Of a DNA stretch of 11,886 nt, positions 1 to 10,714 are shown piece by piece. The notes beneath the pieces were generated by a model. That model did no database searches. It was given only the letters and a program-made list of their open reading frames with translations, and was not told the DNA's origin. Source of the DNA: a virus; the UHGV virus genome UHGV-0180981; one strand, given 5' to 3'. A program made the position numbers and the translations under genes. Position 1 is the first letter of the stretch; every line of letters begins with the position of its first letter.

Positions 1-76
1 GCGAAATCGGTAGACGCAGTTGATTCAAAATCAACCGTAGAAATACGTGCCGGTTCGAGTCCGGCCTTCGGCACCA
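1..76 (+). tRNA. leuX: tRNA-Leu (anticodon CAA), 3' portion; the first ~9 nt of the gene lie upstream of the window
   Basis: Sequence matches the recognised leuX tRNA from D-arm onward: anticodon loop with CAA at 26-28, long variable arm, T-arm GGTTCGAGTCC, acceptor 3' end GGCACCA ending at 76. Confidence 0.9.
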
Positions 77-77
77 A
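46..77 (+). repeat. Left copy of 32-bp direct repeat (tRNA 3' end; attL-like core)
   Basis: CGTGCCGGTTCGAGTCCGGCCTTCGGCACCAA is repeated exactly at 10288-10319; flanks diverge immediately outside the repeat. Confidence 0.8.
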
Positions 78-556
78 GTCACTAAATTCCTTACAATACA
101 GCTGGTTAGACGATTAAATCTGTCTCTTTTGCCTGTAAGAAATGCTCTGTTATGTCCCTTGAAAAAGCCGCTGTGGTTGATAGTGGTAATTGGGATGTTA
201 ACTCATAGCGGCGTGTCGTTCCAGGCGTCAAACACGTACTGACTCAACTTGAAAGCTATGACGTAGCCACCGTCTCTAAACAATCCCAAAAACTTTTAGT
301 GAAGCGCATTTTAGCCCGATGCCCCCGTTCTGTCGCCGTCGCGAGACGCCGCAGGGGATAAACAGGTTTATGGTGGTCACGGTACTTGCAGACCATATGC
401 AAGCTCTGCCAGCGGTTCGGCCTCGCTCCCCTTGGGTACATGGTCATCCTGATAAGCCTCACTAACTGACATAACCCTGATGAAGTCGCCAGAGGCTCCG
501 CTTGTTGTCTTACCACCAACGGGGCTTTATGGATTCTATTGCGGTATGTTTGAAAG

Positions 557-580
557 CGCGCGGGGGTTCATTCCCGCGCG
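557..580 (-). terminator. GC-rich hairpin 10 bp downstream of the 304-aa ORF stop (weak U-tract)
   Basis: CGCGCGGG (557-564) pairs with CCCGCGCG (573-580) around an 8-nt loop; on the minus strand only about 3 U follow, so intrinsic termination is uncertain. Confidence 0.35.
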
Positions 581-589
581 TCCGGCGCT

Positions 590-1504
590 TTATGGTAAGT
601 ATTTAAGTATTTCTGCTGCCCAGTTTACACGGTGGATGACACGGGCATGGTGCAAGTTTCCGTCTAGTATTTCGGCTTTAGTTAGCTGGGATAACTGCTG
701 CCAATTATTGTTAAGTATATAAGTTGCGTTATTACATTGTGAGCTTTCTAGCACGTAAATGTTTTGGCCTGTGAACCCAAATATCACGTAGCCTTGGAAC
801 CCAGCTTGCCCAACCGCTACGAAATCTGGTTTTTTACTATTGATAAGTTCAAGTCTGCCTTCAACAACAGCGGTATTGCCCTTTCCCCTGATCTTAATAG
901 CTGAAAGGATTTTTGAACCGATAGTACTCCAAGGCTGTTGACCCTGAGGCAGGAGGCTCCAGTTTAGTTTTATAGATTTACTTTTAACGATGGTATTAAG
1001 TTGGTCGTCAACAGTTTCGCACAACCCAAAAAGCTCTAAAAAAAGATTAATGCAGTGAGCCACTAACTCTTTGTTGTTAGCTGTCAAACTTAGCTTTGGA
1101 GAGATGATCAACTTCTCCCCTTGCAGATTCTCTACAATCTTTAACTCTATGCTTGGTGGAGGGGTGAGGATTCTCTTGTAGCGCTTATACTCAATTTCAC
1201 GAGTGTCAGTAACTTCTTGAGTTGCGCCCCCTCCGATCCATTGCTTTCTAGTCCATGAAATTTGTCTGTATGCAGTTTCTTTAGGTGCTGTTTTGTCAGG
1301 TACTGATTTGCCATTAGCATTGAATCTGGTTATTGGCCCTAAAATTTTGGGGAGGACTTCTTCACCTAAAGCTCTTTGACTTGAGAAACCAATAGAGTCC
1401 GTTTTCCCCGCATCTGGCAAAGAATGTGCAATGTAGATATCACGGCCATCAAAGTTAGGTATGTAATTATCAATATTTCGAATACGCTTTTTCTGAATAA
1501 GCAT
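590..1504 (-). CDS. Hypothetical protein, 304 aa, no recognisable family; AT-rich foreign-looking cargo gene
   Basis: Longest ORF in the AT-rich arm; ATG start with AGGAA about 8 nt upstream on the minus strand; hairpin follows the stop; no motifs recognised by eye. Confidence 0.6.
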   Translation of the reverse strand: MLIQKKRIRNIDNYIPNFDGRDIYIAHSLPDAGKTDSIGFSSQRALGEEVLPKILGPITRFNANGKSVPDKTAPKETAYRQISWTRKQWIGGGATQEVTDTREIEYKRYKRILTPPPSIELKIVENLQGEKLIISPKLSLTANNKELVAHCINLFLELFGLCETVDDQLNTIVKSKSIKLNWSLLPQGQQPWSTIGSKILSAIKIRGKGNTAVVEGRLELINSKKPDFVAVGQAGFQGYVIFGFTGQNIYVLESSQCNNATYILNNNWQQLSQLTKAEILDGNLHHARVIHRVNWAAEILKYLP

Positions 1505-1636
1505 GGATCGTTCCTTTTGATTTTATCTTACTGTTTACATAACCAACCAAGCCGGGCACAATCGAGCCGTTAGAAACGATAGTGAGGCTAACAATCGTTA
1601 TGAGTTTGCAGACTCATGGCGGTCATGCTTCATAGA

Positions 1637-1667
1637 CCGGATTCACGCAGGTGACTCCGGTTTTTTT
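1637..1667 (+). terminator. Rho-independent terminator (plus strand)
   Basis: CCGGA-T-TCAC / GTGA-C-TCCGG stem with 4-nt loop, followed by a run of 7 T (1661-1667). Confidence 0.55.
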
Positions 1668-2338
1668 ATGCCCATCATTTATACATGGGCACAACATATA
1701 GGGTGTGTTAATAAGATTACCCCCTACATGTTCAGCATTCTAGTTAGGATTCTTTGCAGTACAAGGGTTGATTTTGAGGTTAAATTGAGGTTGTCAAAGG
1801 GAAATTTCGACCAACCCTACGTGCCGTAAGGCTTAGGCTGTATGTCAATGTTTCAGAAAAAAAAATGAAAATTTGATCGAGTGCTGATTTCTTTAGCACG
1901 AGAACATGAGAACGAACCAAAATATTGCAAAGTTTTGAACAAAACTTGAACTGCCTCGTGTCTCCATAGCCAAGACGAATGCAGTTTAAATAAGCTAAGT
2001 CAGCTCTCAAAAGTCCTTTATGACCCGAACCAAAAAATGTACCTCTTAAACCCCACCGCAAGCGGCTCTCCGGGGTTTGTGCGCGTGGAGTAATGCGGTT
2101 GTACTGGGTATGTGCGCACAACCCTCTACAAGCCGCATTCTACCGTTAGCCTATAGCTGAATCCCCGGCTTGAAAAATTGTACGCTTATGGTTGCCCCTC
2201 CCTCAACTGTATAGCTCGCCCGCGCCCCCGTGCGCATGTGCGTGCCCGCGCGTCAGGGGTCGCTGAGAAAACCCTAAGATTTTGCTCATCCGAGACAACC
2301 GTTGCAGGCGCGTGTTGCCGAGGGCACACTGCTAGTGT

Positions 2339-2448
2339 TTGATGGTGTCATCAATCGTTCGATTTTTGCTACCTTCCTGAGTGATTACTATCTGGTGTCA
2401 TCAATTTAGGGTTTGACTAAATGCTACCACCAATGCAATGATGCTACC
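2339..2448. promoter_or_regulatory. Repeat cluster upstream of serine recombinase gene (candidate res/operator sites)
   Basis: TGGTGTCATCAAT exact direct repeat at 2343-2355 and 2393-2405; first copy sits in inverted repeat TTGATG-gtgt-CATCAA (2339-2354); TGCTACC three times (2367-2373, 2422-2428, 2442-2448). Confidence 0.4.
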
Positions 2449-2479
2449 GTTTTGTGATACCAGACGGGTGAGGTGAACC

Positions 2480-3055
2480 ATGAGGACTTTTATCTATTGC
2501 CGCGTTTCAACACGCGAGCAGGATACGCAGAATCAGGTGCTGGCTATTGAGCGTGCCGGGTATAAGGTGCCGGAGAGCAGGGTAATCAGTGAGGACATTT
2601 CCGGTAGCGTTCAGGCTATGCAGCGCCCTAAGTTTCGGGCGATGGTTGAGCATAAGCTGGAAGCGGGAGATCAGCTTGTCGTGCTGAAACTGGACAGGCT
2701 GGGGCGCGACAACATCGACGTGCAACAGACCATCGACATGCTGTTAGAACGTGGCGTGAAGGTGGTGTCTCTTGACCTGCCTGCGCGTGATCTGACTTCA
2801 TCTGAGGGCAAGCTAATCCGCCAGATGTTTGGAGCCTTTGCTGAGTTCGAGCGAAACCGTATCCGTGAGAGGACGCTTGACGGGCTGGAGAAGGCGAAAG
2901 CCAATGGCGTTAAGCTGGGACGCAAGGAAGCCACCGACACCACTCAAAAGGTGCAGGAGCTGCGGAGTGAGGGGCTGTCTCAATCGAAGGTAGCGAAGCG
3001 TCTCGGAGTTAGTGTGAGCACCGTTAAACGCCACTGGAACAAGGGCGAGGGGTGA
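2480..3055 (+). CDS. Small serine recombinase (resolvase/invertase family), 191 aa
   Basis: N-terminal YCRVSTREQ catalytic-serine motif, LKLDRLGRD motif, C-terminal HTH (SQSKVAKRLGVSVSTVKRH); GAGGTG RBS about 8 nt upstream of ATG. Confidence 0.92.
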   Translation: MRTFIYCRVSTREQDTQNQVLAIERAGYKVPESRVISEDISGSVQAMQRPKFRAMVEHKLEAGDQLVVLKLDRLGRDNIDVQQTIDMLLERGVKVVSLDLPARDLTSSEGKLIRQMFGAFAEFERNRIRERTLDGLEKAKANGVKLGRKEATDTTQKVQELRSEGLSQSKVAKRLGVSVSTVKRHWNKGEG

Positions 3056-3994
3056 TGACCTACAAGCGAACGAGGTGCTACGACTGGCCGTTACTGGGCT
3101 GTGGGTGATGGATTACCTACAGCTTTTGTATTTATTTCAGAGGGTTATGTTATGCTTAATATCATAACGATATGATTTATAATGTATTTTCGTGTTACTT
3201 GCGGCTCTTGATGTGAAGAGGTGGCGGGGCTTTAGCCGTGCCAGACGATGAACATCGAGATCAGATTGTGAATGTGATTTATCACTGAACAATTCAAGGG
3301 ATGGGGCAGGGGAAGGGATCAAAGGCTGCGTTGTCCAATCACTAAGCTAGATTTGAAGCTGGTGAACACGTTACTAGTATCTTTAAAGTTGCATTTAAAA
3401 TGCATGTACAAAAAAGGGTTCTTCCCTTACATCCCTTCTCCTAAATGTAGTTACGAGTGCTTCGCTCTCTTCACTTGCTGCGCTTCTCGCTATGCTCCAG
3501 CCCGCTCCATCGCCTTTGGCTCATTCCCGGTCTTCGCCCGCTGCTGATGCTCGGCCACTCTACGCAACCGTGCTTGCCGTGGCAGGCAACGCGGCGGGAA
3601 GGTGTAGTGGTACGGTACTATGTATCGGTATTATTAATGTATTCAATCACATACTGTTATCAGTAGGTATCCTTCAAAACATCTTCATCCATTTCTGTAT
3701 CATTCAATCATCTTTCTTGTTCGTTTCCTTTCAGGTCTTAGCCGTTGTTCATTGGTCTTACTGCCTGCTGTGCTACTGCCAGCTATGGCACGCCGTTACG
3801 GTCTACTGTGTCACCTGTCCTACTGCGTTCACTGTCTGCCGTCTGTCATCCTGTCGGATTCCATCCGTCATCCGTTCCGCGCTCGCTTGTTTCGGCTGCG
3901 CCGCGCTCGCTCTGCGTATCTAGCGATACTCTATCACTATAGACACTTTCATAATTATCTAATGATTACAGTAACTTATATTTTTAATTTTAAA

Positions 3995-4255
3995 GGCTAC
4001 TAATAAGGAGATATAGAGCATTACTTTCCCGCTTTTGACCGACAAAAATCGCGTTGTTAAGTATTGCCAGCCCAGGCCCAGTAAGGCTTAGCGAGGTGGT
4101 GGTTAAAAATTGACCTAATGAAAGTATCTACTAAGGAGAAAGAATAACTCCCGAAGCGAGACAAACTCTCCGATTTTGAAAGTGACTATTAAGGCAGATA
4201 AAGACACTGACACTGTTGCCGACATGAAAACCTCTATAAGGGCAGAGAGTCTGCC
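3995..4255 (+). repeat. Four degenerate direct repeats (iteron/operator-like), core CTAnTAAGG(n)AGA
   Basis: Copies at 3995-4019, 4124-4150, 4182-4209, 4231-4255, all in the same orientation in non-coding DNA upstream of the helicase-led array. Confidence 0.5.
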
Positions 4256-4316
4256 GCACCTGTACCACCGCCCCAACCTGAGCTAATACCTACCCCTATT
4301 TTCTGGAGATTTCACC

Positions 4317-6161
4317 ATGCCAACAAACCTACGCCGCCTGCTTGCGCAGGCTGCCGACGCTGACCCGCTCAATACTGCGGACGCAGATGTACAGCAAATG
4401 ATCGCTGACGGGACTGTTATTCGACGTTCCAAGATATGCCCCGTAAAGCGTAAACCCGTTAAGGCGGCATACAACACAAAGACCGAAGAGTTTTATTACA
4501 ATGCTGATGGTTCCGCTATGACCCTGCGGGAGTGGCGAACGCTGCACGGTGTTCAACCGAAGAAGCAAAAACAGCGCTCTGACGCTGGGTTGCGGCAAGT
4601 CATCCAGCCCGGCGACGCGATTCACTGTCGACGCGCTGAGATTGAGCAATGGCTAAATAAAAAGCCTGCTCGTTATGTTGAACCACTGCCGCCAGATTTC
4701 CCCGGCGTTCGCGTAGACGAGGCTGCATTGAAACCGCGCGAGCACGCCGTGCCGGAATCAACAACCGGACAGAATGCTTTTCTCAAAGCCTGCCGCGAGT
4801 TTCTGATTTGCGACGAGAAGACCATGCGCCGCATTAACAGGGGCATGAATAAACTGGAAGCGATGCGCAATACAGATTTCAAACGCTACGGGAACTCAGC
4901 GGAGTTTCGTCAATTGTGGTGTGGAGAGTCGAAACCTACCGAGGATAAATTTAACAGTACAAATCATCATTGTGACCCGAACGGCTTGGCTGCATCGCCG
5001 TCTATGCCGTCACTGAATACTGTGCCGTATGAGTTCCGTCCGCTGGTTCGCTGTGACCGAAACGCACGCGTCAGCCTGCTGCCACCCGATGGGCTGGAGT
5101 GGAGGCCGGGACAGTTGTCTGTTGCTGATGCGATCTTTACCCGTGGTAGGGATGTGCTTGCCGTACTGCCGACCGGGTATGGCAAAAGCGCCGCCTTCAC
5201 TTATCCACTGATTTATGAGTCCCGCGCTGGCATTGGCCTGTCTGTAATCGTGGTTCCTACTAATACCCTTAAGCGTCAGATTCTCCGCCAGTTGCGGGAG
5301 GCTGGCATTCACGCCGTGGCCTTTGGCGATAAGCTACCGAGGCACCGCAACGCACAACAACTGGCGGGACTAGCAGCCGGGGCGTTCCGGCTTGCTGTTG
5401 TTTCGCCTGAACATCTGGTTCCGTCGAGTCAGGTTCTCGCGGCGCTGATGGCTTATGGCGTTGATCGTTTTATTATCGATGAGGCACACACGGTCAAAGA
5501 CTGGGATTTCCGCCCAGCTTACGACGCAATGCAGCACACACTACAGAATGCTTTTCCCTCGGCTCAACGTTGCGTGTTTACGGCTACTCTACTACGTGAA
5601 AATGAGCGCGGTTTAATGGAGGCGCTGGGGTGCCGTGGCAATTACGTCACATTCCGTGCTGATGTTGCTCGCGAGCATATCCAGTTGATTCCGGTCAGGC
5701 AGTGCCGCGAACGTTTCCGAGCGGCTATTGGTCTGGTCGAGGCTCTGCCGAAAGAAGAGAAGACGCTTATTCTCGTCAATGACCTTAAAACGTTGCGGGC
5801 GTACCTGAAACTCTTGGGCGACCGGGCGCGGCCATATCACTCGAAGACGATGCACCTGAGCAACGAGGAACGCCACGCAAACGCTGAGTGGTTTGCCTCT
5901 ACGCCGGGCGCGATTCTTATTGCTACTAAAGCCTTCGGGCTGGGTGCTGATGTTCCTGATATCCGTAACGTTGTCGTGACATACGTCCCCGATGATTTGC
6001 CTGATCTCGTTCAGATGATTGGACGAGCCGGGCGCGATGGGGAACCTGCCCGCGCTTTTCTGCTGTGGTCATCGCTGGCGCTGGATGTTGCGCCTGATGA
6101 GCTTGCTTACTTCTACCGCCCTGAAAACTGCAACTGGCAGTACATCGCTAAATACCTCTGA
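4317..6161 (+). CDS. RecQ-like superfamily 2 DEAH helicase with uncharacterised ~270-aa N-terminal domain, 614 aa
   Basis: Motif I LPTGYGKS, Ia VIVVPTNTL, II IIDEAHTV with DWDFRPAY, III FTATL, VI GRAGRDG; ends about 45 aa after motif VI, so no RQC/HRDC; GGAG RBS. Confidence 0.9.
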   Translation: MPTNLRRLLAQAADADPLNTADADVQQMIADGTVIRRSKICPVKRKPVKAAYNTKTEEFYYNADGSAMTLREWRTLHGVQPKKQKQRSDAGLRQVIQPGDAIHCRRAEIEQWLNKKPARYVEPLPPDFPGVRVDEAALKPREHAVPESTTGQNAFLKACREFLICDEKTMRRINRGMNKLEAMRNTDFKRYGNSAEFRQLWCGESKPTEDKFNSTNHHCDPNGLAASPSMPSLNTVPYEFRPLVRCDRNARVSLLPPDGLEWRPGQLSVADAIFTRGRDVLAVLPTGYGKSAAFTYPLIYESRAGIGLSVIVVPTNTLKRQILRQLREAGIHAVAFGDKLPRHRNAQQLAGLAAGAFRLAVVSPEHLVPSSQVLAALMAYGVDRFIIDEAHTVKDWDFRPAYDAMQHTLQNAFPSAQRCVFTATLLRENERGLMEALGCRGNYVTFRADVAREHIQLIPVRQCRERFRAAIGLVEALPKEEKTLILVNDLKTLRAYLKLLGDRARPYHSKTMHLSNEERHANAEWFASTPGAILIATKAFGLGADVPDIRNVVVTYVPDDLPDLVQMIGRAGRDGEPARAFLLWSSLALDVAPDELAYFYRPENCNWQYIAKYL

Positions 6162-6198
6162 GTCGAAAGGCTCTCCCTGATTCTCTGGAGTTAATCAT

Positions 6199-6636
6199 AT
6201 GCCTGTTACCGAACATGCGCAGCGTCGTGCTGCGCGTGCGGATGCGCTCATCACCGCACAACTAGCCTTCGCCCTGAATGGGTACAACTGGGATGAACTG
6301 GCCGAACCTCATCGCAAGACCCTTAATCGTGAGGCCATCATTCGCGAGGTATCTACACCGCTGGAGCGATATTGCCTGCTGAATGATTGCGAGCCGTGGG
6401 AGTGTCTGGCCGCTGTACTGAACCGCATGAAAAGGCCGGATGGCTCGCGTCGCTGGAAAGCCGTCCGTTTGTCCGACCGGGTTTTCAATGGCCGAGTGCA
6501 TCCAGTGCGCAAAACGCCTGATGAAGTTTACGCCGCCATTGCCCGCCGCTTGTTCCTGCCGAAGCCCGTGCATCAAGAAGTGATACAGCACATCCGTGCG
6601 CTTGGCTTGTTACCAATTGGAGACAACCACCAATGA
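6199..6636 (+). CDS. Hypothetical protein, 145 aa
   Basis: GGAG RBS 9 nt upstream; 37 bp after helicase stop; stop overlaps next start (ATGA). Confidence 0.6.
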   Translation: MPVTEHAQRRAARADALITAQLAFALNGYNWDELAEPHRKTLNREAIIREVSTPLERYCLLNDCEPWECLAAVLNRMKRPDGSRRWKAVRLSDRVFNGRVHPVRKTPDEVYAAIARRLFLPKPVHQEVIQHIRALGLLPIGDNHQ

Positions 6637-6842
6637 CGAAATCTGAATTTGAAAATGAAACATGGCGAATGAAGGGCTTGCTTCTTGGGGCGCTGATTCG
6701 CCGCCTTGAGGAAGATAAGGCTGGCGAGTCGCGCATGGTCGCAGCGGAGTTATCCAGTGCGGTCAACTTCCTTAAGGCCAACGCCGTAGAAGCGCCGGAC
6801 ACATCATTCAACAACGTGTTCCCGGAGGATGACGAGCAATGA
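6633..6842 (+). CDS. Hypothetical small protein, 69 aa
   Basis: ATGA overlap with upstream and downstream genes; GGAGA RBS. Confidence 0.55.
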   Translation: MTKSEFENETWRMKGLLLGALIRRLEEDKAGESRMVAAELSSAVNFLKANAVEAPDTSFNNVFPEDDEQ

Positions 6843-7015
6843 CCCCTGAACAATTCAGACAATGGTTCGCCACGCTGCCACCGAACTATCAGAGCACCGC
6901 ACGCACCATGTACGACAACGCCCGCAAGTCGGGCACACATACCGCGTCAAGCCTTGCGCTGATTCACACGTTGGTTACTGACCAGATCAAATTTGATTCG
7001 GAGTTTAATTTATGA
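6839..7015 (+). CDS. Hypothetical small protein, 58 aa (below the ORF-track length cutoff)
   Basis: Translated by hand: ATG at 6839 overlaps upstream stop (ATGA), stop at 7013-7015 overlaps next start at 7012 (ATGA); GGAGGA RBS about 9 nt upstream. Confidence 0.45.
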   Translation: MTPEQFRQWFATLPPNYQSTARTMYDNARKSGTHTASSLALIHTLVTDQIKFDSEFNL

Positions 7016-7575
7016 CTTTGAGTATTACCGATATCCAGCGCATTAACGCGCTGGCTCATAAGCACCTAAAGAACAATGAAGAGATTGCAGCGGAGACAGG
7101 TCATACCCTGACCGATATTGATGCTGTAATCCGTGGCGTCTATGTCGATGACTTGGCCGAACATTGGAAAGACGATGCTGATATTACTCTGGCGGAGTAC
7201 AACGCCATCCGCAGCCGCTATAAGCCCGGCAAGCTGCACCGCGATACAGAGTTTATGATTGCCCGCGATATGCTGATTCGCCCTGAGACTGTGCTGGCTA
7301 TCGCCCATTCCCGCTTTAGCAACGTCCACACTCACCCAGTGCCGAAAGCCGTCAAAGCAAAGCCGGAGAAAGCGAAAGTAGTGCGCAAGTTGGTGCCTAC
7401 TGATTTAGATGAAATTCACAAGTTAGAGCGCTTCGGTTGGCCTGCTGCGGAGATCGCCGGGAAGCTGGGCGTCCCTGTTGAGGTCGTCGCGCATGTGCAA
7501 CGCTGCCTGAGAAATCGTTGGTCGTACCCGGATACTCTGGAGTCTGTTAACTCCAAATTCAGCGAGGCTGAATGA
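7012..7575 (+). CDS. Hypothetical protein with putative HTH motifs, 187 aa
   Basis: GGAG RBS 8 nt upstream; HTH-like segments near N-terminus and in LERFGWPAAEIAGKLGVPVEVV; ATGA overlap at both ends. Confidence 0.6.
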   Translation: MTLSITDIQRINALAHKHLKNNEEIAAETGHTLTDIDAVIRGVYVDDLAEHWKDDADITLAEYNAIRSRYKPGKLHRDTEFMIARDMLIRPETVLAIAHSRFSNVHTHPVPKAVKAKPEKAKVVRKLVPTDLDEIHKLERFGWPAAEIAGKLGVPVEVVAHVQRCLRNRWSYPDTLESVNSKFSEAE

Positions 7576-7808
7576 TGGCAGAGAACGAACCTCTGCACCC
7601 CGCCGTTAACCCTGATCTCTACGTGAACCTTGACGAACAACGTGAAGGATACGCCCCGTTTGAATCACGCGGCTGGGATGTTCTGACAAAGAACCTGTCC
7701 GGGGAAGGGCGAACTGACCCCGGCCAAATGCTTAACCAGAATCCGAAACAACGCCCGCGCGGCTCCGTTGGTGAGCGTCGTTGGCTTCGTAAACGTGGAT
7801 TACTTTAA
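7572..7808 (+). CDS. Hypothetical small protein, 78 aa
   Basis: Start overlaps upstream stop (ATGA); basic C-terminus. Confidence 0.5.
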   Translation: MMAENEPLHPAVNPDLYVNLDEQREGYAPFESRGWDVLTKNLSGEGRTDPGQMLNQNPKQRPRGSVGERRWLRKRGLL

Positions 7809-7820
7809 CGAGGAATTACC

Positions 7821-8060
7821 ATGAGCAAAACTATCGTATTGCTGCCGCCACGCAAGAATACAGACTGGGCTGCGCAATTAAAGCTGATTTCTGAATCGCT
7901 TGAGGTGAGTCAGGCAGACCTCGCCCGCGCCTATCAGGTTGATCGTCGGGATATGGGTAAAGCGTATCACGGTGTGCGCAAACTGCCGGAACGTTGTGTG
8001 CCTGTTCATATGCTGTTGTTAGCGCAGGTACACGACTTTAGAGCATTATCAGGAGAATAA
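7821..8060 (+). CDS. Cro/YdaS-like HTH DNA-binding protein, 79 aa
   Basis: GAGG RBS; HTH followed by LPERC motif (SQADLARAYQV...GVRKLPERCVPV) resembling phage Cro/YdaS-type regulators. Confidence 0.6.
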   Translation: MSKTIVLLPPRKNTDWAAQLKLISESLEVSQADLARAYQVDRRDMGKAYHGVRKLPERCVPVHMLLLAQVHDFRALSGE

Positions 8061-8063
8061 TTT

Positions 8064-8744
8064 ATGTCTGACCAGAATGTTAATCCGTACCTTTCCGGTG
8101 CTGATACTGCATCGCAGCAATCGCCGTACATGGCTGCACCTGTTGGCGCTGACAATGGCGCATCCCGCTTTAGCTCTGCGCCTGCTGATGCTGATTTCCT
8201 CCGTACCCAACCCGTTAACGGTAATGATGGCGGCCAATGGAATAATGGCAGTATCGCGAATCAGCAGGATCAGAACGCTGACAGCGCCGGGGCGCAGGTG
8301 GGCGATACTATCTCCCTGATGGATGGAACAGCTATTGAGTACACCGCCGAGCTGCAAGGATTGATGGGACAGTTTCATCAGTCTGTCGAAAGCCAGCTAG
8401 GGCAAGGGACAGTTGACGCTATGTTGCAGTACGCTGGCACGCTCGATGCCGGGACGCAATCGACCCTTGAACGGATGGTTATGTCTGGCGACCCTGCGCA
8501 GATGCAGCGAGCCGTTCAGTATCTGCAAGAGAGGATGGCTGGCGGTTCCATTACCGGTTACGTCCCGAACGGCCAGACTGCCGCGCAACCTGTCGGAATG
8601 TCACATGCTGAGTTTATAGCAGCGTATGACCAGCTTTCGCAGTGGGCGCAGCAATCAGGGTATGGCCCCGGCCATCGCCAGTACGACGAACAATACCGCG
8701 CTCTGGTTGCGCAGCGCTCCGCTGGCAAACGTGCTGGCCGCTAA
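8064..8744 (+). CDS. Hypothetical protein, 226 aa, low-complexity N-terminal half, helical C-terminal half
   Basis: AGGAGA RBS 8 nt upstream; starts 3 nt after previous stop. Confidence 0.6.
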   Translation: MSDQNVNPYLSGADTASQQSPYMAAPVGADNGASRFSSAPADADFLRTQPVNGNDGGQWNNGSIANQQDQNADSAGAQVGDTISLMDGTAIEYTAELQGLMGQFHQSVESQLGQGTVDAMLQYAGTLDAGTQSTLERMVMSGDPAQMQRAVQYLQERMAGGSITGYVPNGQTAAQPVGMSHAEFIAAYDQLSQWAQQSGYGPGHRQYDEQYRALVAQRSAGKRAGR

Positions 8745-8861
8745 CACCCAACGGTGGAATGCGCCCTGCAAGACTGAGTGCGCACCAACCCGGTACTACC
8801 ACACCAATCTATGCGCATGAGTCCCCGCAAGCCGTATTCTGCGCGGCATCTGAAAGCCTGT

Positions 8862-8887
8862 TTTTAATTAACCGAGGTTCGTAATGA
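8862..8887. promoter_or_regulatory. hix/gix-like 26-bp site with core AACCGAGGTT
   Basis: Core 8870-8879 is the gix crossover-region sequence; each flanking half-site matches the hix half-site consensus at about 8/12; overlaps the ATG at 8884. Confidence 0.25.
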
Positions 8888-9297
8888 GTACCTGTAATTT
8901 CCATGCCGTGGAGCGTGTCGCTGACGTGCGCCCGGATTTCGCCTTGCCGCTGGGTAGATGCGATCACATTTACCCTGAGCGTGTGCAGCACGTTTTCAAT
9001 CCAGACGAGGCGGTTTATATCGTTGCCCGGTCTGCCACATCCGGCACCCGCACATCTGGCGTTAGCCGTGGGCTTTCCCCTGTGCTGCCGCCGAAGATGG
9101 CCGAGCGCATGCGCGAACGTGAACGGCACGAGAAGAATCGAGCCAGACCCCGCAATGTGATCACTGAGGCAGTACGCGCTGACATTATCGAGCGCTCTGC
9201 AAAAGGTCAGAAGAATCGTTACATTGCAAGCAAGGTTGGTGTGTCTGAAACCTCTGTGCGGAAGGTGTTGAACATGGCGCGTATGAGTGCGCACTAA
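8884..9297 (+). CDS. DNA-binding protein with C-terminal Hin/resolvase-type HTH, 137 aa
   Basis: C-terminal RPRNVITEAVRADIIERSAKGQKNRYIASKVGVSETSVRKVL resembles the Hin DNA-binding domain; no catalytic domain; true start may be an internal Met. Confidence 0.55.
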   Translation: MSTCNFHAVERVADVRPDFALPLGRCDHIYPERVQHVFNPDEAVYIVARSATSGTRTSGVSRGLSPVLPPKMAERMRERERHEKNRARPRNVITEAVRADIIERSAKGQKNRYIASKVGVSETSVRKVLNMARMSAH

Positions 9298-9493
9298 TGC
9301 AAGGTAATACGTTCGCCTTACTTCACGCGCATTAACCCCTGAGAACCGCGCCAGCTCTGGCCTCAAAACGCCCATTCGGGGCACCTCATCCCTTTAATCG
9401 ATACCGTTCTGAATCCTGCCTCGGCGGGAGGATTCCGCACGTCTGTGCCATGACGATGGCGCGGGCTTCATCAACCTATGTAGGAGTTTTGTT

Positions 9494-9991
9494 ATGGCTG
9501 ATACTTCGTACAGTCCCGATCTGTTTCGCCCACACTATGGCGGGGTGGAATCCGACAATGATATTCACATCGAGGCTTATGACCGGGACATCCAGACCCG
9601 TTTAGAGTCCAAATCTGTATTTCTGGCCGAGGGGCTGTCTACATACAGGCCGCTGAAAGCCAGCAACCAATATCGTGTTGATCGCCTGAGTGGTGATCTG
9701 GAGGTGAAGGGCAGAGCCGCAGGGCAATCGCTGGAGCATACCGCCGTTAAGTCGGACAAGCTGATTATCTCTGTGGATACGCTGAGCTATCTCCGCATCC
9801 CGATTGACTATCAGGAGGACTGGACAGCACCCACTTTTCGCTCAGAGCTGAGCCGCAATATGGGTACTGCTCACGCTAAATTCTACGACGAAGCGCACAC
9901 CATCCAGCTAATCAAAGCGACTGACTTTGTATCGCCGCCGACACTGCAACCAACGTTTAACCCACTAAGCGAGTCCATTCCAGAGCAATAG
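9494..9991 (+). CDS. Hypothetical protein, 165 aa; possibly an N-terminal fragment of a T7-like major capsid protein
   Basis: AGGAG RBS 8 nt upstream; by-eye resemblance to T7 gp10 N-terminal region (LF...GG, ED...RSExxxxxGxxxA); ORF ends at about half normal capsid length. Confidence 0.55.
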   Translation: MADTSYSPDLFRPHYGGVESDNDIHIEAYDRDIQTRLESKSVFLAEGLSTYRPLKASNQYRVDRLSGDLEVKGRAAGQSLEHTAVKSDKLIISVDTLSYLRIPIDYQEDWTAPTFRSELSRNMGTAHAKFYDEAHTIQLIKATDFVSPPTLQPTFNPLSESIPEQ

Positions 9992-10154
9992 CATCCCGAA
10001 ACAATCGCGCTTGGCGTACATCGCGTGTCCCTGTGCTTTTCATAAAGTAGCGCTTCCCTTGGAACAGGTGGCGCATGTAGTTGGGGATAGCTATCCGCAC
10101 GAGGTAATTCCCGCAGGGATCTAAAACTAGATAACGATCTCTCTTGAAACTCAT
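9957..10154 (-). pseudogene. Tyrosine integrase N-terminal remnant (about 65 codons)
   Basis: YLVRIAIPNYMRHLFQGKRYFMKSTGTRDVRQARLFRDAIALEWTRL fits the integrase N-terminal arm-binding pattern; stops after 65 codons, no catalytic domain; sits about 130 bp inside the right repeat. Confidence 0.35.
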
Positions 10155-10185: not shown

Positions 10186-10287
10186 CATGGCTAAACAGTC
10201 TGTGAAATGTGCCGGGGTCATGAGCTTTAGTCTAGCTAGTTCAACAAGTTAACGATGATTGTTGAAGCAAGCTAAGTCGCTATAACC

Positions 10288-10319
10288 CGTGCCGGTTCGA
10301 GTCCGGCCTTCGGCACCAA
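10288..10319 (+). repeat. Right copy of 32-bp direct repeat (attR-like; partial tRNA 3' end only)
   Basis: Identical to 46-77; upstream sequence does not match the tRNA body. Confidence 0.8.
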
Positions 10320-10357: not shown

Positions 10358-10714
10358 GTGTCTGAAATACACGTAAAGTTTTCCTTTCAACGGAAGACAA
10401 TCTGATTCAGCCAATATCAAATTTCTTATAAGTATAGAACAGAATATATTCTCATTCGATAATTGTCATATTTGTGCATAAGCTTTCCGGTGATTTTGAA
10501 AGGTTATTTGTCTTAGCCTGACGCTTTCCGCTTTATCCTGGAAAAGGAATGTCTGCTGTCCCGCATGGTTTAAACATCTCACATCTGCTGTAACGAACCT
10601 CAAACTTTCTCCATCATTGATTAACTTGCTGTGATTTTGGTCATTGCTCGGGAAGCTTCAGAAAGTTAAAGTAAAAATTATGTTCCTAAAATGTATGCGC
10701 AGGCCTGCATAACA

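Follow-up and report, generated by a model that had tools for sequence, protein, structure and literature searches.

The phage satellites that come closest to the element described here are the SaPI/PICI islands, the PICIs that form capsids (cf-PICIs), and the satellites P4 and PLE. SaPI/PICI islands are elements of ~15 kb, about one-third the size of the helper genome, that carry a tyrosine integrase, defense cargo, and packed co-directional small genes (in SaPI1 operon I: terS, ppi, cpmA, and cpmB); the small terminase (TerS) encoded by a SaPI redirects the large terminase (TerL) of its helper. P4, whose Sid protein changes the capsid size of P2, and PLE, which exploits the virulent phage ICP1, use the capsid protein of the helper. 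PLE also manipulates the packaging motor of its helper (bioRxiv 10.1101/2024.04.22.590561). The cf-PICIs, such as EcCIEDL933, are enterobacterial and have their own major capsid protein (MCP), small terminase, and HNH endonuclease, together with a full HK97-type module for head and packaging that comprises portal, protease, TerL, and head-tail connectors (PMC13612085, PMC10085698). Here we analyzed a stretch of 11,886 nucleotides presented as the virus genome UHGV-0180981 (the window), in which an earlier note had singled out a chain of five overlapping small genes, g1 to g5, at positions 6199 to 7808.

We found the chain to lie within a tRNA-integrated, satellite-like island that, in intact copies, carries a T7-type capsid gene and a short scaffold-like gene and that has, as one of the chain genes, a predicted small terminase of the gp18 type. 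An island of this kind is apparently undescribed; full-text literature searches returned no description of it or of any satellite of the Autographiviridae. The explanation that accounts best for the locus as a whole, and to which we give a probability of about 0.5, is that the five are genuine operon genes, that the island is a satellite exploiting a phiKMV-like Bonnellvirus, and that the chain is its module for DNA recognition and packaging redirection.

A tRNA-integrated island with T7-type head genes

Positions 1 to 9968 of the window are 100% identical to Escherichia coli KFu019, and the chain is 97.9% identical to that of the prototype enteropathogenic E. coli (EPEC) strain E2348/69. Among 5,426 complete E. 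coli genomes the chain was present in 59, always in one copy and always on the chromosome. The intact islands that we examined measure 14.7 to 15.4 kb, are integrated at tRNA genes, and are bounded by a 32-nucleotide (32-nt) direct repeat of the tRNA-Leu 3′ end (att); other copies of the island reside at tRNA-Gly and tRNA-Thr. The window opens with the 3′ part of a leuX-type tRNA-Leu gene (1 to 77, plus strand; Rfam tRNA, 38.4 bits), where KFu019 and E2348/69 have an annotated tRNA-Leu. The attL core lies at ~47 to 77 (plus strand), within a direct repeat (19 to 77 and 10261 to 10319) whose 3′ 32 nt are identical, and attR, the duplicated tRNA-Leu 3′ end, repeats 47 to 77 directly at 10289 to 10319 (plus strand). 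The same att core bounds the island in the loci L001, L002, and L025, the last an IMG/VR contig that contains the island within 27.7 kb. Two Logan contigs (L021 and L022) coincide exactly with the island and end in the att repeat. We considered whether such 14.9-kb Logan contigs represent circular molecules and rejected this reading, as att-repeat ends fit circular and integrated forms alike.

Intact islands share one gene order. The first half consists of variable cargo, a serine recombinase gene, a gap of ~1.2 kb, the gene for a RecQ-like helicase, and g1 to g7; the second half consists of a variable helix-turn-helix (HTH) gene, the gene for a 331-amino-acid (331-aa) capsid protein, an HNH gene, two small genes, an endonuclease-VII-like gene, variable cargo, and the tyrosine integrase gene. 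Both ends are hot spots of variable cargo, located at 78 to 2400 in the window and, in L001 to L011, L021, and L022, in the interval that separates endonuclease VII from the integrase. The cargo types that we recognized were type II restriction-modification (XcyI, Eco47II, and methyltransferase plus endonuclease), TIR proteins, AbiTii, a YafO toxin, and Rap1a. The left cargo of the window itself is a 304-aa protein (590 to 1504, minus strand) with no family match.

The head genes point to one group of phages. Over its full length, the intact capsid protein of KFu019 is 55% identical to the MCPs of Escherichia phages Lidtsur, forsur, glasur, and J8-65, of which Lidtsur is classified in the Autographiviridae, genus Bonnellvirus, and it matched solved podovirus capsid proteins with an E value of 6e-79. 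The window retains the 5′ half of this gene (9494 to 9991, plus strand; 165 of 331 codons; phrog_267, E value of 9e-33), with homology to the intact gene ending at ~9966. Lying two genes before the capsid gene, g7 (8064 to 8744, plus strand; 226 aa) encodes a short homologue of scaffolding proteins whose N-terminal half is rich in Q and N. The C-terminal 100 aa of its product aligned with the last 100 of the 411 residues in the Bonnellvirus scaffolding protein (hhalign, 82%, E value of 1e-5; BLASTP, 31% identity over 104 aa, E value of 3.5e-4), and a Q/N/P-rich N-terminal half is common to both proteins. The g7 product looks like a shortened scaffold, which suggests a means of capsid-size control. 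The endonuclease-VII-like protein of the island likewise matched the Lidtsur endonuclease (E values of 5e-5 to 2e-4).

The same phages were reached from within the chain. The product of g2 (6633 to 6842, plus strand; 69 aa) is, judging from its profile matches, a divergent homologue of the T7 gp18-type small terminase. We draw this conclusion because g2 matches the TerS family PF11123 (DNA_Packaging_2), because profiles built from either side find each other, because hhalign separates the match from controls, and because the phage group is the one indicated by the capsid. All 13 distinct g2 alleles matched PF11123 and no other Pfam family (best E value of 8e-6). A g2 hidden Markov model (HMM) run against every open reading frame (ORF) of Lidtsur returned the TerS ORF as its sole significant match (E values of 5e-6 to 9e-6), and it matched 53 of 54 Autographiviridae TerS sequences (best E value of 2e-7); conversely, an HMM of those 54 sequences matched g2 alleles only among all island proteins. 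In hhalign comparisons, g2 and TerS aligned with a probability of 79 to 88% (E values of 3e-6 to 2e-5), compared to less than 2% for six control families. The best-matching TerS proteins belonged to Bonnellvirus-type phages, as did the best matches of capsid and scaffold. A size like that of many members (70 to 100 aa) and a conserved central helix motif, AAELS..FLK.N, are further features that g2 shares with the gp18-type proteins.

The island is therefore best compared with satellites. It is a discrete element with an integrase and bounding att repeats, much smaller than a phage, and it lacks the gene set of an autonomous virion while carrying capsid, scaffold-like, and TerS-like genes; portal, tail, TerL, and lysis genes were not recognized among the island proteins. 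Relative to a 42-kb phage genome its size ratio is 0.35, the satellite/helper ratio also found for P4/P2 and SaPI1/80alpha. T7-like heads need only a portal, a scaffold, and a capsid protein and no protease, and a scaffold gene with a capsid gene would therefore be a sufficient head-remodeling kit. Variable defense cargo at both ends, as in known satellites, lends further support. We regard it as rather probable that the island is a satellite of Autographiviridae.

Described satellite families differ from it in several respects. The island resembles SaPI/PICI elements in size, integrase, operon layout, satellite-encoded TerS, and defense cargo, but no sequence relationship goes past the general idea of a TerS, which in the island is of the T7 gp18 type. 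The island also has its own capsid and scaffold-like genes, a RecQ-like helicase rather than Pri-Rep, and a presumed virulent podovirus helper. No homologues of AlpA, Stl, Ppi, or Pri-Rep were detected in the scanned island proteins, and the combination of an integrase and a capsid gene with neither AlpA nor Pri-Rep sets the island apart from classical PICIs and SaPIs. The cf-PICIs are defined by an HK97-type module together with int-alpA-pri (PMC13612085, PMC10085698). Of these components the island has capsid, HNH, and TerS-like genes only, with no portal, protease, TerL, AlpA, or primase, and its capsid is of the T7/phiKMV type. Nor is it a P4-like satellite: whereas P4 and PLE depend on the capsid protein of the helper, the island brings its own, and the scanned island proteins included no homologue of P4 sid, psu, delta, or alpha (PHROG, Pfam, and NCBIfam searches) or of any PLE gene.

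The five overlapping genes and their conservation

The chain genes follow one another on the plus strand: g1 at 6199 to 6636 (145 aa), g2 at 6633 to 6842, g3 at 6839 to 7015 (58 aa), g4 at 7012 to 7575 (187 aa), and g5 at 7572 to 7808 (78 aa counted from 7572). As the earlier note had described, the starts at 6633, 6839, 7012, and 7572 overlap the preceding stop codon, in the form ATGA at all four junctions, and each start is preceded at 4 to 10 nt by a Shine-Dalgarno (SD)-like motif (GGAG 9 nt before g1 and 10 nt before g2, GGAGG 10 nt before g3, GGAG 8 nt before g4, and GAGG 4 nt before 7572). On both strands of the whole window, no other 4-nt overlaps occur between ATG-initiated ORFs that reach 50 aa. 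In 300 Markov-1 trials, random sequences of matching composition contained a mean of 0.26 such overlaps and a maximum of 2; the run of four in the chain exceeds chance.

Some details of the original description needed adjustment. The ATGA overlap at 7572 exists, but the g5 start kept in relatives is a second ATG at 7575 (TGATG, 1-nt overlap). In 9 of 22 haplotypes the codon at 7572 is missing or reads GTG, GAGG stands at a better distance from 7575 (7 nt) than from 7572 (4 nt), and g5 of E2348/69 begins at the second ATG in the NCBI annotation; the conserved start of g5 is probably the ATG at 7575. The 58-aa g3 had been presented as a gene absent from the ORF track. It is a real gene, left unlisted solely by the 60-aa cutoff of the listing, but it was no omission of public annotation, since the NCBI Prokaryotic Genome Annotation Pipeline (PGAP) already lists it (WP_174220580.1 and WP_000187175.1); in that annotation all five chain ORFs, g3 included, are hypothetical proteins. 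Finally, the genes that overlap are five, but the packed series extends past them in both directions: 37 nt separate the end of the helicase gene (4317 to 6161, plus strand) from g1, 12 nt separate g5 from g6, and 3 nt separate g6 from g7, and further overlapping gene junctions occur elsewhere in the same island. No plus-strand intrinsic terminator was found within 6199 to 7808. A terminator-like hairpin (3096 to 3125) follows the recombinase gene and is itself followed by a sigma-70-like promoter (3136 to 3183). The chain is the center of one long co-directional operon that runs from the RecQ-like helicase through endonuclease VII.

We compared the chain across 11 E. coli loci (71 to 100% nucleotide identity), 8 loci of Kluyvera, Enterobacter, Kosakonia, and Trabulsiella, and assembly and virome contigs, a set that collapses to 22 distinct chain haplotypes. 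The earlier note had named loss of the overlaps or reading frames in homologous loci as the outcome that would count against it, and no such loss was observed. Every one of the 22 haplotypes has the five frames open and an overlap at each of the four junctions, with no spacer anywhere. The overlaps measure 4, 8, or 1 nt between g1 and g2, 4 or 1 nt between g2 and g3, 4 or 17 nt between g3 and g4, and 4 or 1 nt between g4 and g5, and SD-like motifs are present in most haplotypes. Median pairwise ratios of nonsynonymous to synonymous substitution (dN/dS) were 0.15 for g1, 0.11 for g2, 0.17 for g3, 0.19 for g4, and 0.15 for g5 (overall span of 0.10 to 0.19, with dS of 0.6 to 1.0), and the helicase gene had a median of 0.15.

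This conservation largely extends to more distant relatives. An exhaustive HMMER search with a g1 profile, which returned only 15 representatives, led to L107 and L108 (33 to 55% identity), in which the frames and, but for one L108 junction, the overlaps are kept. The chain proteins of L108 are ~40 to 45% identical to those of the window, and the order helicase, g1 to g7, capsid is unchanged; three of its junctions overlap, by 4, 1, and 8 nt, and 2 nt separate g4 from g5. L108 also has a g3 homologue (10482 to 10676; 64 aa, 40% identity) that the gene caller of the Logan contig had not called. We are nearly certain that the five ORFs are real genes with a conserved coupling geometry. PGAP leaves the open g5 homologue unannotated in 4 of the 11 E. 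coli loci (L006, L008, L009, and L011), and in L004 it calls a 42-aa fragment.

Overlaps of 4 nt are the commonest class of junction in compact bacterial and phage operons. In such ATGA coupling the TGA stop overlaps the next ATG and the SD motif lies inside the upstream gene, and the chain is mechanistically the same, standing out only for an unbroken run of four conserved junctions (−1, −4, −8, and −17). The claim of translational coupling thus stands as far as geometry goes, which is found in every close relative and at three of the four L108 junctions, while its operation is deduced from that geometry. We consider it almost certain that the chain genes are co-translated from one transcript. 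As a mechanism, the overlaps are ordinary, termination-reinitiation being a standard arrangement.

The further step taken in the earlier note, from coupling to a fixed stoichiometry as in a multisubunit complex, found no support, because the alleles of g1 to g5 reassort freely, which would not be expected of coevolving subunits, and because 4-nt overlaps are so commonplace. With allele classes defined at 88% identity in L001 to L011 and L013 to L025, each chain gene has 3 to 11 classes, compared to 1 for the capsid protein and 2 each for g6 and g7. Adjacent alleles occur in 9 combinations for g1-g2, 11 for g2-g3, 15 for g3-g4, and 16 for g4-g5, and the helicase and g1 (5 and 7 classes) occur in 14. 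The island core is a mosaic in which helicase and g1 to g5 alleles recombine at or near gene boundaries. Chain and helicase thus appear, from these alignments, as the diversified, recombining part of an otherwise conserved core, and their allele diversity would fit specificity or arms-race roles better than a single coadapted five-subunit machine.

The chain proteins themselves are mostly orphans. Those of g1, g3, and g5 matched nothing in Pfam, PHROGs, NCBIfam, or PADLOC, where g4 gave a weak HTH match and g2 the subthreshold TerS match only, and profile searches of g1, g2, and g4 against solved structures returned nothing below an E value of 0.02. The all-helical g1 product has an N-terminal helix (residues 1 to 50) and a conserved C-terminal domain (55 to 138), which in distant relatives is encoded by separate, duplicated genes: L108 (9518 to 10279) and L110 (406 to 1159) have a short N-terminal gene followed by two tandem copies of the C-terminal domain (87 to 92 aa each). 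That g1 is split and its domain repeated in this way shows g1 to be a two-domain protein and the chain to be capable of growth by duplication. The g3 product is a conserved orphan of 58 to 64 aa across relatives. For g4, an AlphaFold2 model (mean predicted local distance difference test score [pLDDT] of 80) contains three HTH-like modules of three helices each, at residues ~5 to 40, 60 to 98, and 129 to 167, with a basic disordered linker at 99 to 128. The window protein matched phrog_3855 (HTH; E value of 7e-4), and the L108 homologue produced three distinct HTH signals, one of which (HTH_23, 25.9 bits) exceeds its cutoff of 24.6 bits; g4 is accordingly predicted to be a DNA-binding protein with three HTH modules. 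The g5 product (77 to 78 aa) is mostly of low complexity, with short invariant motifs at the N terminus and in the basic C terminus (RPRGSVGERRWLR..GL), and its frame is open in every locus. In wider homologue searches the g1 and g4 families were confined to Enterobacteriaceae. An IMG/VR sequence (L026) that had seemed to hold a g4 homologue (31% identity) was rejected, as the match was a KLERFGW seed inside an unrelated 359-aa protein.

The chain had also been likened to a phage early operon. Its genes do sit in a phage-satellite-like island, but they are not a known phage early operon, because a set of 50,697 sequenced phage genomes contained no match to g1, g2, or g4 (tblastn); nor did it contain one to the complete chain (blastn).

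Possible roles of the chain

The reading that we prefer supposes that the island exploits a phiKMV-like member of the Autographiviridae, genus Bonnellvirus, with its own capsid, a shortened scaffold, and g2 as TerS. A ribosome that terminates on one chain gene would reinitiate on the next, so that the chain genes are made together from one transcript while the DNA is kept compact. The g2 protein, with the DNA-binding g4 and perhaps g1, would then mark satellite DNA for the TerL of the helper, and g2 may in addition hinder the packaging of the helper. We suggest only tentatively that packaging or DNA recognition is what the chain serves. Equally tentative is the wider proposal that the island represents the first recognized satellite family of virulent T7-like (Bonnellvirus-type) coliphages, which would build its own small (~T=4) heads out of its own capsid protein and short scaffold on the helper portal and fill them through its own TerS and the helper TerL, with the chain as a fast-reassorting, helper-specific recognition and interference module made of families found nowhere else.

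Several observations weigh against this scheme. The g2 protein of the window scored 21.3 bits against PF11123, under the 27.5-bit gathering score (the TerS of Lidtsur, a clear member, scored 63.5 bits); the stretch aligned with TerS covers only ~40 residues and excludes the acidic C-terminal tail of g2; and, unlike the genes of PF11123 members, g2 adjoins no TerL gene, with no TerL in any island copy. No promoter shared with Lidtsur could be recognized, as the phage contains no 12-mer repeated three times and no motif was derivable. The free reassortment of g1 to g5 alleles speaks against a tight five-protein complex. The copy in the window is defective, so its chain genes cannot serve transfer in this strain. 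Lastly, the chain follows the helicase gene, a position equally compatible with a role in replication.

That role is the substance of an alternative in which g1 to g5 are accessory to the RecQ-like helicase, for instance as origin-binding proteins, a loader, or regulators, made in set proportions through coupling. The chain begins 37 to 45 nt past the helicase gene in every relative, g4 and perhaps g1 are predicted to bind DNA, and helicase and chain make up the part of the island that is diversified, as origin-specificity modules often are. No primase or Rep was recognized in the island proteins, and that function must lie somewhere. The homology of g2, however, is to a packaging and not a replication protein, the helicase and g1 reassort in the 14 combinations given above, and no iterons or origin-like repeats were found adjoining the genes. 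RecQ-type helicases are, moreover, not known to serve satellites as replicative helicases. We think this role unlikely.

The diversity of the chain could instead reflect a helper-interference or host-takeover cassette, that is, a set of independent inhibitors or modulators, comparable to T7 early proteins or SaPI interference proteins, coupled for compactness only. Small orphan proteins confined to this island family, many allele classes in free reassortment, as arms-race genes would show, and a g5 product that is largely low-complexity with short invariant terminal motifs all agree with it, and a TerS-like g2 could poison the terminase of the helper instead of serving the island. Purifying selection on the chain is nevertheless strong and uniform, with no excess of amino acid change; a protein with several HTH modules, such as g4, suits DNA recognition better than protein inhibition; and no match to a known antiphage or antidefense family was found. 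A cassette of this kind seems doubtful to us.

A third possibility, which we regard as highly unlikely, is that a DpdF-like helicase forms the core of a defense system in which the small genes supply partner subunits. The helicase does match the PADLOC DpdF submodel PDLC02858 (E value of 6e-273), and the island cargo includes restriction-modification, TIR, and AbiTii genes. Yet the helicase scored only 124 bits against the NCBIfam DpdF model, whose cutoff is 550 bits. The DpdF submodel match stands alone: the island has no further dpd gene, Dpd models are matched by none of its other proteins, and g1 to g7 match no PADLOC model. Helicase and chain are also always linked to the core of capsid, scaffold, and TerS, whereas the recognized defense genes lie in the variable ends. 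Defense-finding tools will probably mislabel the island helicase as DpdF. To the idea of a decaying prophage remnant, with functionless ORFs whose overlaps are inherited phage compactness, we give almost no credence: half the capsid gene and almost the whole integrase gene are gone from the window copy, and in UTME-7 (L005), too, the capsid gene is cut short, but the same genes in the same order and at the same 14.7- to 15.4-kb size occur in intact islands of at least 9 genera at tRNA-Leu, tRNA-Gly, and tRNA-Thr sites, with all frames intact and dN/dS of 0.1 to 0.2 at saturating dS.

The overlaps themselves teach nothing new, and the interest of the chain lies in its island context. If the proposed satellite scheme is correct, the island would represent a new way of parasitizing a model phage family and a tractable system for capsid-size control, for T7-like packaging specificity, and for the spread of defense genes (restriction-modification, TIR, and AbiTii) by lytic phages. 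Obvious candidates for helper specificity are the genes that vary within the conserved core: those of the chain, the helicase, and g6. The presence of the element in E2348/69 makes these ideas readily testable.

Other island genes and the deletion in the window

Upstream of the operon, a serine recombinase gene of the resolvase/invertase type (2480 to 3055, plus strand; PF00239, E value of 8e-37; phrog_125) is present in all relatives, at times as an allele of 26 to 35% identity. The gap that follows it (3056 to 4316, ~1.26 kb) contains no convincing gene; it includes the sigma-70-like promoter mentioned above and an AT-rich segment (3901 to 4200; 39% GC). It may hold an origin or a regulatory region, and a search of it for iterons and origin-like repeats returned only short two-copy repeats. 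In L008, L010, and L011 a 145-aa gene occupies the gap between recombinase and helicase, and the helicase is longer (629 aa). The helicase of the window, the first gene product of the packed series, is a 614-aa superfamily 2 protein with DEAD and Helicase_C domains; it scored 141 bits against RecQ_fam, below the 220-bit cutoff, and its N-terminal extension of ~250 aa had no match.

Downstream of the chain, g6 (7821 to 8060, plus strand; 79 aa) encodes a probable Xre-type HTH protein, on the basis of an HTH_31 match of its L108 homologue (E value of 9.5e-5). Between g7 and the capsid gene lies the variable g8 (8884 to 9297, plus strand; 137 aa), with a C-terminal HTH (HTH_23, E value of 7e-4), which is swapped for other alleles in several relatives. 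An HNH_3 endonuclease gene directly follows the capsid gene in intact islands (L001, 20365 to 20817), whereas in L108 a related HNH gene stands upstream of the helicase gene; the enzyme may have a homing function instead of one in packaging.

Relative to KFu019, the window copy has a deletion of ~5.1 kb. At ~9966 the deletion fuses capsid codon ~158 to the integrase gene on the opposite strand, of which it leaves the initial ~65 codons, and the window from 9966 to 10375 matches related loci at ~96% over their integrase 5′ end and attR flank. What remains of the tyrosine integrase is an N-terminal remnant of 65 codons (9957 to 10154, minus strand), compared to 400 aa for the intact protein (PF00589 and DUF6538). 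The deletion has taken most of the integrase along with the C-terminal half of the capsid, the HNH gene, both small genes, endonuclease VII, and the cargo. With its chain genes intact, the window copy is predicted to be able neither to excise nor to make capsids.

Beyond attR, a second tyrosine integrase gene points away from the island (L001, 25477 to 26658; L003, 18092 to 19357; L011, 16787 to 17959). Because this gene directly follows attR, the island is inserted in tandem before an older tRNA-Leu or tRNA-Thr island.

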